43,264 nucleotides of DNA from an uncultured Eubacteriales bacterium (lineage in GTDB: Bacteria > Actinomycetota > Coriobacteriia > Anaerosomatales > CAVRZR01): NCBI GenBank assembly GCA_964456615.1, contig CAYWCB010000001.1, positions 1 to 43,264 on the forward strand, written 5' to 3'. Positions 32,041 to 36,879 of this stretch are shown piece by piece; position 1 is the first letter of the stretch, and each line of letters opens with the position of its first letter. The translations under genes were made by a program, and so were the position numbers. The notes beneath the pieces were generated by a model. That model did not search any database. It saw nothing but the letters and a program-made list of their open reading frames with translations, and was not told the origin of the DNA.

Positions 32041-32580
32041 CTACCGCCACACCTGCATCGTGCGCCCGCGCGCGTCGACCTCGCCGTTCTCGGGCATCGC
32101 ATCGGCCTGACCGGCCCGGATCCTCTCGGTGGTCCAGCACGCAGCAGCCGCATCCAGAAGATCGTCGAAACTGAACTCGCCTTCCCACTCCGACGGCCGG
32201 GCGATCTCCAGCGCGAATCCATGCTCCTCGAGGAGTGACAGCCGCTCGAGCAGACCGCGGCCGTCCTTCTTCGAGTAGCGCAGAGGCCTGCCGCCATTCA
32301 TGGTCACGAAGCTCACTTCCGGGTGAACCTCGAACGTCCGTCGGGCGGGCGCGTCCGACGGCGCGAGAGCGTCGTCCACTTCCCGGATCCTCGGCAGGAT
32401 GGCGAACGATTGCTTCGAGATCCCTATGCCGGCATCTGAGCTGCCGACGTTCGCCGCGTTGGCGGCGGCGTAGTCGTCGGCGTGATCGAGGGCAGCCCTC
32501 ACGGGTGGCAAGAACACGCGCGACTTACCCTCACCGAGCGTCTCGCGCGCGAGGACGTCGCACCGCCTGCCGCCGGGCCG
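32041..32580 (-). pseudogene. DUF429 gene copy 1, 5'-truncated and diverged
   Basis: Encodes RPGGRRCDVLARETLGEGKSRVF...EVHPEVSFVTMNGGRPLRYSKKDGRG...MQVWR, homologous to residues ~80-258 of the full copy at 35417..36193. Homology stops at about 32580. Confidence 0.65.
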
Positions 32581-32584
32581 CGAT

Positions 32585-32611
32585 CTTGATGTGCCAGATT
32601 GGCACATCAAG
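32585..32611. repeat. perfect 11-bp-stem inverted repeat at the DUF429 truncation breakpoint
   Basis: CTTGATGTGCC-AGATT-GGCACATCAAG, starting 5 nt beyond the end of DUF429 homology. Confidence 0.7.
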
Positions 32612-32676
32612 TTGGAGACTCCGCACGAAGCATGAGAGAGCATAGGTCAGGCTCTGTTCGGATTCCGGTAGGTCCC

Positions 32677-33160
32677 GCGTGCAAGACTCGGGACGCGGAC
32701 TGCTCGTGGGTGTTCGGTGATTCGGGAAGGGGGTATGGTTCGTGCAGGAGGTGCCCGACATGAAGGTGCAGTTCACCGCTGTGTTTGAGGAAGTCCCCGA
32801 AGGCTTCATCGGCTATGTAGAGGAGCTTCCCGGCGCGAATACACAGGCTGCGACGCTGGAAGAGGCTCGGATCAATCTCGAAGAAGCCGTCGAACTCGTA
32901 CTCCAGGCAAACCGCATGCTTGCACAAGAGCGCACGGGTGAGCGAAAGGTCATCCGAGAGCCCCTGCACATCAGCTCGTGAAACGATCGGACCTCGTTCG
33001 GCATCTCAAGAGGAGCAGGTGCGAACTTCTTCGCGAGGGCGCTAGGCACTCCGTCTACGTGAATCGCACATCTGGCAAGGCCGCTTCTGTCCCACGCCAT
33101 CGCGAGATCAACGACTTCCTCGCCCGGAAGATCTGTCGGGATCTGGAGGTCGAAGAGCCG
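32677..33160 (+). repeat. 484-bp hicBA cassette, copy 1 (partner at 38599-39082)
   Basis: Collinear with no indels over 484 bp and about 85-90% identical by eye. Includes 83 bp of shared leader (GGGGGTATGGTTCGTGCAGGAGGTGCCCGAC). Confidence 0.85.
32760..32981 (+). CDS. hicB: HicB-family antitoxin (UPF0150 type)
   Basis: MKVQFTAVFEEVPEGFIGYVEELPGANTQAATLEEAR. GCAGGAGG RBS. Confidence 0.8.
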   Translation: MKVQFTAVFEEVPEGFIGYVEELPGANTQAATLEEARINLEEAVELVLQANRMLAQERTGERKVIREPLHISS

Positions 33161-33163
33161 TAG
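32978..33163 (+). CDS. hicA: HicA-family mRNA interferase toxin
   Basis: MKRSDLVRHLKRSRCELLREGARHSVYVN...VPRHREINDFLARKICRDL. The GTG start overlaps the hicB stop (GTGA). Confidence 0.85.
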   Translation: MKRSDLVRHLKRSRCELLREGARHSVYVNRTSGKAASVPRHREINDFLARKICRDLEVEEP

Positions 33164-33171
33164 GACGGCTA

Positions 33172-33544
33172 CTACCTCCACACCCGCATCTCCCGCCCGC
33201 GTGCGTCGACTTCGGCCTCGGCGGGCATCGCACTCGCCTGACCGTCCCGAATCCGCTCGGCAGTCCAGCACGCCACCGCCGCATCCAGCAGGTCGTCGAG
33301 CGCGAACCCACCCTCGCCCTCCGACGCCCTGGCGATCTCCAGCCTGAACCCGTGCTCCTCGAGGAGTGAGAGCCGCTCGAGCAGACCTCGGCCGTCCTTC
33401 TTCGAGCAGTGCAGAGGCCTGCCGCCGTTCATGGTCACGAAGCTCGCTTCCGGGTGAGCCTCGAACGTCCGTCGGGCGAGCGTTTCCGACCGCGCGAGAG
33501 CGTCGTCCACTTCCCGGATCCTCGGCAGGATGGCGAACGACTGC
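33172..33544 (-). pseudogene. DUF429 gene copy 2, a 3' fragment identical by eye to 35417-35789
   Basis: The 373 bp begin exactly at the stop codon. The track shows an identical peptide (MDDALARSETLARRTFEAHPEASF...REMRVWR) and identical shadow ORFs offset by 2,245 bp. Confidence 0.75.
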
Positions 33545-33577
33545 GCGGAAACTCACGCGGCCGAGTTGCGACTAATC

Positions 33578-33605
33578 TTGATTCGTCACAATGCTGATGT
33601 ATAGT
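33578..33605 (+). promoter_or_regulatory. sigma-70-like promoter TTGATT-16 nt-TATAGT for the nucleotidyltransferase pair
   Basis: An AT-rich patch directly after the DUF429 fragment. The -10 ends 13 nt before the ATG at 19 nt frame position 33619, and AGGTGA lies at 33613-33618. Confidence 0.45.
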
Positions 33606-35224: not shown

Positions 35225-35416
35225 CAGGCCGGAGCGCGGGGGTTGCTCGGCGAGTTCCGCAGGCGGGGCAGGCGCGAGGAGGCGCCGTTCGGCGTGTCCG
35301 AGCGCCGGGGGCCCCCGCCGAGGACTGTCTGAGCCGACGATCCCCTGTGCCCCTGCCCCCAGCTTGAGTGTCCGACGATCCCGTGCGCCCCGGCCCTCGG
35401 CGTCGGTCGTTCTCGC

Positions 35417-36193
35417 CTACCTCCACACCCGCATCTCCCGCCCGCGTGCGTCGACTTCGGCCTCGGCGGGCATCGCACTCGCCTGACCGTCCCGAATCCG
35501 CTCGGCAGTCCAGCACGCCACCGCCGCATCCAGCAGGTCGTCGAGCGCGAACCCACCCTCGCCCTCCGACGCCCTGGCGATCTCCAGCCTGAACCCGTGC
35601 TCCTCGAGGAGTGAGAGCCGCTCGAGCAGACCTCGGCCGTCCTTCTTCGAGCAGTGCAGAGGCCTGCCGCCGTTCATGGTCACGAAGCTCGCTTCCGGGT
35701 GAGCCTCGAACGTCCGTCGGGCGAGCGTTTCCGACCGCGCGAGAGCGTCGTCCACTTCCCGGATCCTCGGCAGGATGGCGAACGACTGCTTCGAGATCCC
35801 TATGCCGCTCTCCGAGCTGCCGACGTTCGCCGCGTTGGCGGCGGCGTAGTCGTCCGCGTGATCGAGGGCGGTCCTCACGGGTGGCGAGAACACGCGCGAC
35901 TTGCCCTTGCCAAGCGCCTCGCGCGCGAGGACGTCGCACCGCCTGCCGCCGGGTCGGGCGTCGTCGAGAAGGCCGATCGGGATGTCGACGGCGATGATCG
36001 CGTCTTGCGCGAACGCGGCGACGGACTCGAAGTCGGCGAGCACCCGGTAGTGGATGTGTCCGCTGGCGTCGCGCCAGGCGACCATCCAGCCGCCTCGGCA
36101 TCCATCGACGCCGACGGCGAGGGGGCGGTCCTGCGCATCCTCGAACCGCTCGGCACCATCGGCTGCTCGTTCCGCTGTCGTATCGCGTGTCAT
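35417..36193 (-). CDS. DUF429 domain protein (predicted RNase H-fold nuclease), the only full-length copy
   Basis: PLAVGVDGCRGGWMVA, IIAVDIPIGLLD, RRCDVLAREALG, GISKQSFAILPRIREVD and EAHPEASF. ATG preceded by GAGGTGGG. The N-terminal 203 aa of track ORF 35417..36802 are spurious. Confidence 0.8.
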   Translation of the reverse strand: MTRDTTAERAADGAERFEDAQDRPLAVGVDGCRGGWMVAWRDASGHIHYRVLADFESVAAFAQDAIIAVDIPIGLLDDARPGGRRCDVLAREALGKGKSRVFSPPVRTALDHADDYAAANAANVGSSESGIGISKQSFAILPRIREVDDALARSETLARRTFEAHPEASFVTMNGGRPLHCSKKDGRGLLERLSLLEEHGFRLEIARASEGEGGFALDDLLDAAVACWTAERIRDGQASAMPAEAEVDARGREMRVWR

Positions 36194-36216
36194 CGCTCCG
36201 CCCACCTCGCTCCCAC

Positions 36217-36262
36217 TCGGCAAGAACCCGGTTTGGCTTCGGCAAGAACGAGAGCGTATCAT
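36217..36262 (+). promoter_or_regulatory. candidate operator/promoter of the addiction-module antitoxin gene
   Basis: The 11-mer TCGGCAAGAAC occurs at 36217-36227 and 36239-36249 (22-bp period). TTGGCT-18 nt-TATCAT ends 6 nt before the GTG at 36269, which suggests a leaderless mRNA. Confidence 0.3.
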
Positions 36263-36268
36263 CGGCTC

Positions 36269-36487
36269 GTGAGCACACACGCCATCGATATCGACAAGCT
36301 GGCCCCTGCGGAGCGATTGCAGCTCATCGGCGATCTCTGGGACAGCCTCCGCGCTGAACCCTCGTCGGTCCCGGTGACCCACGAGCATCGCGAGGAACTC
36401 GACGAGCGCCTCGACGAACTGGACACCGGAGCTGCCGAGCTCGTCGACTGGGACGAAGCCAAGCGCAGACTGCACCGAAGCGTCTGA
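36269..36487 (+). CDS. putative addiction-module component (antitoxin, TIGR02574-like)
   Basis: LAPAERLQLIGDLWDSL...THEHREELDERLDEL matches this small antitoxin family. 72 aa with a GTG start. Confidence 0.6.
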   Translation: MSTHAIDIDKLAPAERLQLIGDLWDSLRAEPSSVPVTHEHREELDERLDELDTGAAELVDWDEAKRRLHRSV

Positions 36488-36488
36488 G

Positions 36489-36670
36489 GTGCAGCGCGTA
36501 CAGTTCCATTCGGCCGCCCTCGCAGACGTCGAGACGCGCGAAGATTCCTGCTTGAGCGCTTCCCGTACTGCCTCTACTACCGAGCGGGCGAGGGAGAGGT
36601 CATCTTCCTGGCATGCCTGCACGCCGCAAGGAGTCCGAGAAGGGCTCGCCGCCGCCTCGATTCTGGGTGA
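36489..36670 (+). pseudogene. decayed ParE/RelE-type toxin gene (internal deletion plus frameshift)
   Basis: Frame 1 gives VQRVQFHSAALADVET. A shifted frame then gives RFPYCLYYRAGEGEVIFLACLHAARSPRRAR, the typical toxin C-terminus. The total is only about 55 codons against roughly 95 expected. Confidence 0.5.
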
Positions 36671-36879
36671 GCCTCGAACGTCCTTCGGGCGAGCGCCTCC
36701 GACCGCGCGAGAGCGTCGTCCACGTCCCGGATCCTTCGCGAGATGGGGCAACAACACGCTCCCCTGCCGCCGCCGAGCGCCTCGCGCGCGAGGACGTCGC
36801 ACCGCCTGCCGCCGGGTCGGGCCGCATCGAGCAGGCCGATCAAGGTGTCGACGGCGAGAGGGCGGTCCTGCGTGTCCAT
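36665..36879 (-). pseudogene. DUF429 gene copy 4, a 5'-containing remnant with internal deletions
   Basis: MDTQDRPLAV..LIGLLDAARPGGRRCDVLAREALG..IRDVDDALARSEALARRTFEAHPE aligns to the full copy with two or more gaps. It abuts the parE remnant. Confidence 0.55.

Follow-up and report, generated by a model that had tools for sequence, protein, structure and literature searches.

Intact genes followed by displaced 3' fragments of themselves are known from type VI secretion system (T6SS) effector-immunity loci and Rhs arrays, where the orphan fragments have been attributed to homology-facilitated illegitimate recombination (Kirchberger et al. 2017, PMC5361080; the process as described by de Vries & Wackernagel 2002 and Meier & Wackernagel 2003, as cited there). 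A comparable array, built from copies of a DUF429 gene, is found in the 43,264-bp metagenomic contig CAYWCB010000001.1 (~65% G+C) of an uncultured member of the Actinomycetota; this entire contig is referred to here as the window. As in the T6SS, Rhs and contact-dependent inhibition arrays, an intact gene (copy B) is followed by its own displaced 3' fragments (copies C and D), each beside a small protective or addictive gene set, and growth appears to have been stepwise, through a homologous anchor plus an illegitimate joint, with variable breakpoints and no dedicated recombinase. In those arrays the displaced pieces are variable toxin-domain ends, each encoded on the same strand as its cognate immunity gene, and the retention of immunity makes functional sense. 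Here, by contrast, C and D are homologous to B throughout (100% and 88%) and are pieces of a non-variable predicted RNase H-like nuclease, their neighbors are unrelated toxin-antitoxin (TA)-like modules on the opposite strand, and a 5' remnant (copy A) lies upstream of the intact gene. We regard the locus as another instance of a structure already known, the array of recombination scars within a variable island; its anchor gene is unusual, and it reveals no new machinery. With moderate confidence, we favor a reading in which stepwise additive recombination, anchored on homology, took place in a TA/defense hotspot and left the DUF429 fragments behind as scars.

Self-BLAST of the window and repeat finding mapped four DUF429-related segments, every one on the minus strand and alternating with plus-strand cassettes (Table 1). 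The original prediction, made from the sequence alone, had described such an interleaving with opposite-strand TA-like cassettes; self-BLAST, repeat finding and Pfam agree on it, and the self-alignment that had been proposed as a check returns the same four copies, with C, D and A matching B at 100%, 87.8% and 85–90% identity, respectively. Chance is excluded for these matches because their E-values range from 1e-15 to 0, and sensitive tblastn and nhmmer searches found no fifth copy in the window. Copy B is full-length, matching Pfam DUF429 (PF04250) over positions 1–213 of 214 (E 4.5e-54), and keeps the motifs GVDGC, VDIPIGL, E.HPE and DD.LDA..ACW as they occur in 14 homologues; it alone among the four has the complete set, the N-terminal motifs being missing from C, D and A. 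Identity between C and B stops exactly at the stop codon. Copy D is without the initial ~78 codons and thus without the GVDG and VDIPIGL motifs; its stop codon lies at 32041–32043, and it shares ~18–22 nt past the stop with B. The open reading frame (ORF) that contains D (32041–32643) acquires an unrelated N-terminus. Copy A is interrupted by two internal deletions, one of about 104 bp and one of about 117 bp, such that 36656–36746 aligns with 35688–35778 of B (89%), 36747–36857 with 35883–35994 (85%), and the start region 36849–36877 with 36112–36140 (90%). The best explanation of this anatomy is that B is the single functional DUF429 gene, predicted to encode an RNase H-like nuclease, and that A, C and D are non-functional recombination scars.

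These pieces appear to be of mixed age, with A and D older and C very recent. Sixty-eight substitutions separate B from D with no indel and no stop (synonymous divergence, dS, 0.255; ratio of non-synonymous to synonymous divergence, dN/dS, 0.38), and most of this divergence thus arose while D was still an intact gene. Its uneven distribution (21% in the 3' third, 8% elsewhere) hints at mosaicism. Copies A, B and D differ by 12–15%, a level that fits alleles assembled by transfer, and copy A shows true pseudogene decay. Such decay through internal deletions would also suit an ancient in situ family, and the copies could be old tandem DUF429 paralogues eroded by deletions, among which TA cassettes inserted independently, with no need for horizontal alleles. 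We consider this improbable. The shared orientation of all copies within 5 kb suits it, as does the absence from the databases searched of external relatives of the three alleles above 50% identity; however, a long-dead fragment 12% diverged would not be expected to lack indels and stops as D does, gene conversion would be expected to homogenize tandem paralogues 1–3 kb apart, and neither the perfect repeat around exactly one cassette, with its left arm ending at a stop codon, nor the parallel recQ case described below is explained.

That repeat consists of C and the 3' end of B, which form perfect 373-bp direct repeats (33172–33544 and 35417–35789) around a 1,872-bp insert carrying a nucleotidyltransferase (NTase)/winged helix-turn-helix (wHTH) cassette. 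The right arm runs on into the 5' part of B, and identity breaks off abruptly at both ends. Simple tandem duplication is rejected as the source of the B/C repeat because self-BLAST shows the insert to be present once. A second bracket of this kind lies within the same contig, where a 428-bp repeat (97.9% identity) of a NucS-like PD-(D/E)xK gene (PADLOC PDC-S11) flanks a 1.8-kb cassette with TcmP. This NucS-like repeat system, 10 kb to the left, had been put forward as a parallel to the DUF429 array, and it holds up: the gene is present as one full-length copy and three 5' fragments, every copy has the true start codon (ATG at about 22050) as its first codon, preceded by unrelated sequence, and the ends differ. 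In both the DUF429 and the PDC-S11 case, repeats of the anchor flank the insert and one copy is continuous with the gene, as expected of additive integration. The B/C layout, judged from its sequence, is what a single homologous crossover of a circle, or one homologous and one illegitimate joint, would produce. It also resembles Campbell-type integration in that identical 373-bp repeats flank an insert, one copy being fused to the gene and the other truncated. Campbell-type integration is known mainly from laboratory suicide vectors and from plasmid or phage co-integrates; unlike those cases, no replicon, vector or circle is evident here, and the insert is a 1.87-kb TA-like cassette only.

Under additive recombination, a cassette would arrive on DNA that also carries part of a DUF429 allele, which would serve as the homologous anchor. 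Entry could follow either of two routes, a single (Campbell-type) crossover of a circularized fragment, or a homologous crossover in DUF429 combined with one illegitimate joint, that is, homology-facilitated illegitimate recombination. Either route would bring in the cassette and duplicate the anchor gene in part, and neither would involve a dedicated recombinase or recombination site. Older events would have left A, the 5' remnant beside the antitoxin/parE cassette, and D, the 3' fragment beside hicBA-1, and the newest would have placed the 1.87-kb NTase/wHTH insert between the perfect repeats. It is plausible that the scars persist because addiction-type cassettes select against loop-out deletion between the repeats.

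The fragments break off at different points. In B coordinates, C begins at 35789, D at 35956, and A has its end at 35688; no motif is common to these edges, and the fragment starts do not coincide in a single crossover core. Such differing edges are as expected for illegitimate joints, unlike a fixed att core. Pfam and NCBIfam scans of well-supported ORFs (selected on G+C at third codon positions), with the remaining gaps inspected by eye, revealed no integrase, recombinase or transposase in the 43-kb contig, in keeping with the integrase-free character originally predicted, and the window holds no tRNA and no Rfam family. Palindrome searches, run without a dedicated attC model, detected no palindromic element common to the cassette ends and returned a single isolated 11-bp inverted repeat (32586–32610).

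The original prediction had likened the locus to an integron cassette array, and the likeness to chromosomal integrons (superintegrons) extends to small cassettes, many of them TA modules, in one orientation within a variable chromosomal region. In superintegron cassette arrays, a stabilizing role is ascribed to the TA modules. Unlike superintegrons, however, the locus has no IntI, attI or attC, its cassettes have their own promoters, and its separators are gene fragments with differing ends and no common breakpoint, some of them missing altogether, as three cassettes are stacked without one. Sigma-70-like promoters were sought upstream of the three interleaved cassettes and found for two, the NTase/wHTH and antitoxin cassettes (Table 1); both sites lie directly upstream of the respective gene, so that these are not promoterless cassettes of the Pc-dependent type. 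None was found for hicBA-1, and the prediction that each cassette has its own promoter-like region therefore stands for two of the three. On these grounds an integron is excluded. Serial site-specific integration into the 3' part of DUF429, with each element bringing a replacement 3' end and the integrase lost or supplied in trans, is very unlikely because the edges differ and no integrase or transposase, tRNA or Rfam family is present. It would reproduce the arrangement familiar from tandem islands in which tRNA or protein genes supply the att site and in which 3' fragments of the target, like C and D downstream of B, mark the borders of successive inserts, and distant wHTH cassettes do occur in integrase-less islets at tRNA-Arg 3' halves (L120 and L128, below). 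The fragments, however, share no 5' boundary or core, the 373–558-bp repeats far exceed usual att sites, A is a 5' remnant upstream of B that the model would not produce, and the anchor gene differs between related contigs, the same cassette lying between recQ fragments in one of them.

That contig, L076 (ENA ERZ25039554 contig_95491, 8.3 kb), comes from the same sample as the metagenome-assembled genome (MAG) of the closest relative. Over L076:2638–6657 the order is recQ 3' fragment, NTase/wHTH, recQ 3' fragment and hicBA. The wHTH homologue is 82% identical to that of the window, and the hicBA pair immediately to the right is 84–86% identical to window hicBA. The two recQ fragments are direct, 5'-truncated and retain the RQC and HRDC domains; they align over a 753-bp high-scoring segment at 93.9%, with a core ~97.5% identical in which 10 differences are synonymous and 2 non-synonymous and one is a frameshift, and no intact recQ is present on the contig. 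NTase/wHTH and hicBA cassettes thus occur in alternation with 3' fragments of another gene in a related organism, and the pattern recurs in the lineage.

Such recurrence can also be read as the work of a regular system without an integrase, in which truncated gene copies (DUF429, recQ, PDC-S11) are portable homology arms, circles made by RecA reinsert at any copy of an arm in the same or another genome, and TA addiction stabilizes the result. It would account for the alternation of NTase/wHTH and hicBA with 3' gene fragments that differ in origin between the window and L076, for two near-perfect brackets around ~1.8–1.9-kb inserts within one contig, and for the conservation of the cassette promoter region (~88–90% as read by eye in the alignment; 68–80% in 60-nt windows) and tail (90–93%) above the level of the cassette genes. 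The L076 recQ arms share a truncation point and stand ~2.5–6% apart, mostly at synonymous positions (10 versus 2), which fits refreshing from functional genes. Against this, the three different DUF429 breakpoints indicate that the arms are not interchangeable units, three adjoining cassettes are stacked with no arm, bracketing is not enriched (4/30 versus 4/47 loci, as detailed below), neither circles nor alternative arrangements were observed, and L076 is the only closely related example; a regular arm system is therefore rather unlikely. In its boldest form, units of a small addiction or defense cassette plus a truncated host-gene arm would, in this actinobacterial lineage, excise and reinsert by RecA alone between DUF429, PDC-S11/NucS-like or recQ arms, making an integrase-free functional analogue of an integron with TA modules guarding the repeats; we hold this, too, to be unlikely.

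Several observations weigh against additive recombination as set out above. The 5' truncation points of the two L076 recQ fragments coincide to within ~50 nt, a match not expected from a simple one-step model. Since C and B are 100% identical, donor and recipient DUF429 must have been identical, and the event may therefore have been intragenomic. Joints lie near gene ends (C at the stop codon, the L076 recQ fragments 11 nt past the stop, all four PDC-S11 copies at the start codon), which random illegitimate joining does not predict and which may reflect selection or something more regular. The unusually strong conservation of the non-coding cassette tail is not fully explained. The original prediction had raised an extrachromosomal source of the cassettes with their DUF429 fragments, and the search returned no plasmid or phage carrying the NTase/wHTH cassette or DUF429; nor did a database of 5.8 billion proteins contain any DUF429 relative, and hence any candidate donor allele, above 50% identity (best non-self match 50%). 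The proposed horizontal origin of A, B and D thus stands without a donor match.

A further rival is an assembly artefact, in which strain variants were threaded through the repeats or the 373-bp perfect repeat was mis-resolved. The window is an entire metagenomic contig, the perfect repeat exceeds short-read k-mers, and the same assembly graph would fit an insert-free chromosome plus a 2.2-kb circle. The unique joints, however, connect non-homologous sequences (33544/33545, 32580/32581, the deleted copy A and the truncated parE-like ORF) and so cannot come from repeat-mediated mis-joining; the 12–15% difference among A, B and D is beyond assembler confusion; and L076, an independent contig of another assembly, has a similar architecture. 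An artefact is accordingly highly improbable as the source of the array.

The array sits at the right edge of a ~38-kb TA/defense island (~1.2–39.2 kb; 1169–39185) that contains HicB, PIN, MqsA-like, TOTE AEP-helicase, AbiEii, Mrr and type I restriction-modification (R-M) genes, together with HigB/HTH-M78, the PDC-S11 (NucS-like) gene, TcmP, a helicase operon and candidate PDC systems. Among the relatives found, the closest is the MAG 'uncultured Actinomycetes bacterium MFD05942.bin.3.284', whose FGase is 72% identical. In this relative (L004/L005), only a BrnTA pair and one ORF occupy the 1.4 kb that separates FGase from the Metallophos/polysaccharide-deacetylase genes; the window has 38 kb between these flank genes. 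The island is missing from the relative, and no DUF429 gene is present at its syntenic locus. The flank spacing in the relative places the DUF429 array in a hypervariable island and not at a conserved DUF429 locus. DUF429 has been viewed as a non-mobile RNase H-like family, in clade D of the RNase H-like superfamily (PMC3985635), and distant DUF429 homologues, which are single genes in housekeeping neighborhoods, agree with that view. None lies near FGase in 71 genomes, and exact-match look-ups of window proteins for strain variants returned no record.

The 1.2–39.2-kb segment, with its TA/defense genes between genes that are adjacent in the relative, resembles defense-island/TA hotspots. Hotspots between core genes are exchanged by flanking homologous recombination, as in the 'minimal mobile elements' of Neisseria, usually with clean replacement of content. 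Unlike such clean-replacement hotspots, the additions here leave partial duplicates of genes internal to the island.

Table 1. Coordinates of the DUF429 copies, cassettes and associated features in the window
Feature	Position	Strand	Remarks
PDC-S11 copies	9981–10421, 14137–14245, 20902–22068, 23863–24567		
TcmP (TIGR04474) cassette	22069–23868		flanked by the 428-bp PDC-S11 pair
DUF429 copy D	32023–32580	-	5'-truncated; aligns with B 35399–35956 over 558 bp; Pfam 51–211
hicBA-1 cassette	32645–33163	+	HicB 32742–32981, HicA 32978–33163; Pfam UPF0150/HicA_toxin
DUF429 copy C	33172–33544	-	3' 373 bp, matching B 35417–35789; Pfam 101–213
NTase/wHTH cassette	33545–35363	+	promoter, two genes, non-coding tail
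Promoter TTGATT-16-TATAGT	33578–33605	+	sigma-70-like; upstream of NTase
DUF6036-like NTase	33619–34221	+	Pfam DUF6036 below threshold (20.8 vs 23.6 bits)
338-aa wHTH protein	34208–35224	+	ArsR/MarR-like wHTH domain
Conserved non-coding tail, ~135 nt	35225–35363	+	G+C-rich; compared with L076:5200–5333
30-nt motif CCGACGATCCCNTGNGCCCC..., two copies	35334–35401	+	copies 38 nt apart; repeat finding
DUF429 copy B	35399–36193	-	intact; coding sequence 35417–36193 plus ~18 nt native downstream sequence
Addiction-module cassette	36233–36666	+	sigma-70-like promoter site 36233–36262; Unstab_antitox/TIGR02574 gene 36269–36487; parE-like remnant 36489–36666
DUF429 copy A	36656–36879	-	decayed; 5' start kept (ATG at 36879), 3' truncation; weak Pfam match (E 7e-6)
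Gp49/HigB-like + HI1420-type antidote cassette	37016–37603	+	no DUF429 separator
Phd + PIN/VapC cassette	37678–38357	+	no DUF429 separator
hicBA-2 cassette	38664–39094	+	no DUF429 separator
FGase	39186–40013	-	conserved flank gene right of hicBA-2; synteny with relative

The NTase/wHTH cassette of the newest insert is 77.8% nucleotide-identical to L076:3542–5333. In most of 80 metagenomic loci an NTase gene directly precedes the wHTH gene, and this conserved pair has the look of a TA-like module with a putative TA or defense role. The predicted structure of the wHTH protein (predicted local distance difference test score 92.5) matches PDB entries only in its ArsR/MarR-like wHTH domain and contains no recombinase or Rep fold, and a mobility function was rejected on this basis; PHROG, PADLOC and NCBIfam searches with the protein were all without a match. 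Conservation between the window and L076 is highest in the tail, whereas the coding part ranges from 65 to 88%; the promoter region of the NTase is likewise conserved. Mismatches in the tail lack codon periodicity and include one 1-nt indel. Neither a structured RNA nor a recombination site was supported as its identity, as its fold z-scores against shuffles are -1.4 and -1.3 and it is truncated at differing points elsewhere, after ~57 nt in contig L158 and directly after the stop codon in contig L077. Because the tail is cut differently in L076, L158 and L077, the ends of this cassette are not site-specific. The first copy of the motif CCGACGATCCCNTGNGCCCC forms the end of the conserved tail, and the second abuts the native downstream sequence of B.

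The 3' ends of two cassettes had been noted to approach DUF429 stop codons closely, and the measured stop-to-stop gaps are 8 nt (hicA at 33163 to C at 33172) and 192 nt (wHTH at 35224 to B at 35417). At the first of these, an inverted 7-nt match, TGGAGGT/ACCTCCA, links the 3' ends of hicA-1 (plus strand) and copy C (minus strand) over 33139–33185; the two halves could pair into a hairpin spanning the 8-nt joint, with a probability of chance occurrence of about 5%. Loss of three hicA-1 codons at this joint was considered and ruled out, since HicA of L076 ends identically (..EP*) and the hicA-1 end is thus native. The 64-nt unique joint between D and hicBA-1 contains the perfect 11-bp inverted repeat, TTGATGTGCCA-gat-TGGCACATCAA, which is possibly an operator; the window has no further copy of it, and the regions upstream of hicBA-2 and of L076 hicBA lack it.

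Both hicBA pairs are predicted by family models to be HicAB type II TA systems with a toxic HicA (HicA_toxin 28.6 and 38.3 bits, cut-off 27; UPF0150/HicB-like 25.9 and 27.7 bits, cut-off 27.3), and their hicB and hicA genes overlap by 4 nt. The two pairs are 85.8% identical, and all four genes are intact. For both hicB and hicA, dS between the copies is ~0.7, with dN/dS of 0.035 for hicB and 0.076 for hicA, and both copies are accordingly under purifying selection. They appear to be old functional paralogues that lie outside any single segmental duplication. The left cassette end is close to 'GGTCAG' in hicBA-1, hicBA-2 and L076 hicBA. In the addiction-module cassette, the decayed parE of the original prediction is only partly borne out: the motif RFPYCLYYR..VIFLACLH can be read by eye in the remnant, and a Pfam profile search gives no match. 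The final codons of this remnant overlap the edge of copy A.

Other features of the window were noted alongside the array. Three co-directional genes on the minus strand (28101–31913) lie directly downstream of copy D. Their products are 349, 465 and 451 aa long; the first has a PD-(D/E)xK-like motif, and the third is AAA_11/AAA_30 helicase-like, with weak MkoC/Hhe/PLuB matches. Since B and D share ~20 nt past the stop, DUF429 may once have headed this possible defense operon. The type I R-M genes are split, with hsdM/hsdS at 24949–27679 and hsdR at 16145–19318, Mrr just downstream of hsdR, and about 5.6 kb containing PDC-S11 copies, TcmP and the HigB/HTH-M78 pair between the two parts. A 74-aa fragment of a NERD-domain gene (14738–14962; Pfam E 9e-5) is 84–87% identical to segments of the unrelated contig L077 (3334–3435 and 1069–1112) and is a further remnant common to islands of the lineage. 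A 768-aa GDSL-lipase-like protein has an internal duplication (40710–41113 versus 41769–42172 and 41376–41689 versus 42351–42664) at about 70% nucleotide identity.

Comparable arrangements were seen on other contigs. L077 carries an ADP-ribosylglycohydrolase remnant with an internal deletion (945–1060), a full copy of the gene (2209–3186) and an AbiEi_4 gene between them, the same order of remnant, cassette and gene. On L109, two copies of a gene for a 123-aa protein flank an NTase/wHTH cassette. Distant wHTH cassettes on L120 and L128 occupy small islets beside tRNA-Arg(CCT), bounded by 88–190-bp direct repeats (18–136 and 3934–4021 on L120, where the repeats include the tRNA 3' half; 3006–3223 and 5023–5214 on L128), and no integrase lies inside either islet. 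Contig L104, a low-G+C metagenomic contig, has a ~160–220-bp intergenic element with TGTATAAT and a conserved leader-like sequence (2289–2528, 7526–7689, 9180–9339 and 11288–11509; also on L105) that precedes successive cassettes, including MNT/HEPN-like and NTase/wHTH pairs, and looks like a repeated promoter-leader unit between cassettes.

A general homology-driven mechanism of cassette capture had been suggested for this organism. Homology-anchored recombination is the best available account of the locus, given two near-perfect long repeats and the L076 case, and homology-driven capture as ordinary recombination is plausible. Its generality is not supported: among loci with at least 1.5 kb of flank per side, bracketing direct repeats are found at 4/30 distant NTase/wHTH-family loci and at 4/47 loci of the housekeeping control gene FGase. 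Bracketing is thus not a general property of the cassette family; its occurrences appear to cluster in this high-G+C actinobacterial lineage. Cassette mobility of a new kind would follow only if arm-plus-cassette units prove to be repeatedly mobile.

For annotation, the fragment 'genes' of DUF429, recQ and the NucS-like family are to be treated as pseudogene fragments, and the locus also informs models of island turnover. If stepwise additive recombination is the correct explanation, the window would provide a clear natural example of TA/defense island growth by homology-anchored addition, with scars that can be dated from a perfect repeat through 88% fragments to a decayed remnant, and it would suggest why such scars survive beside addiction modules.

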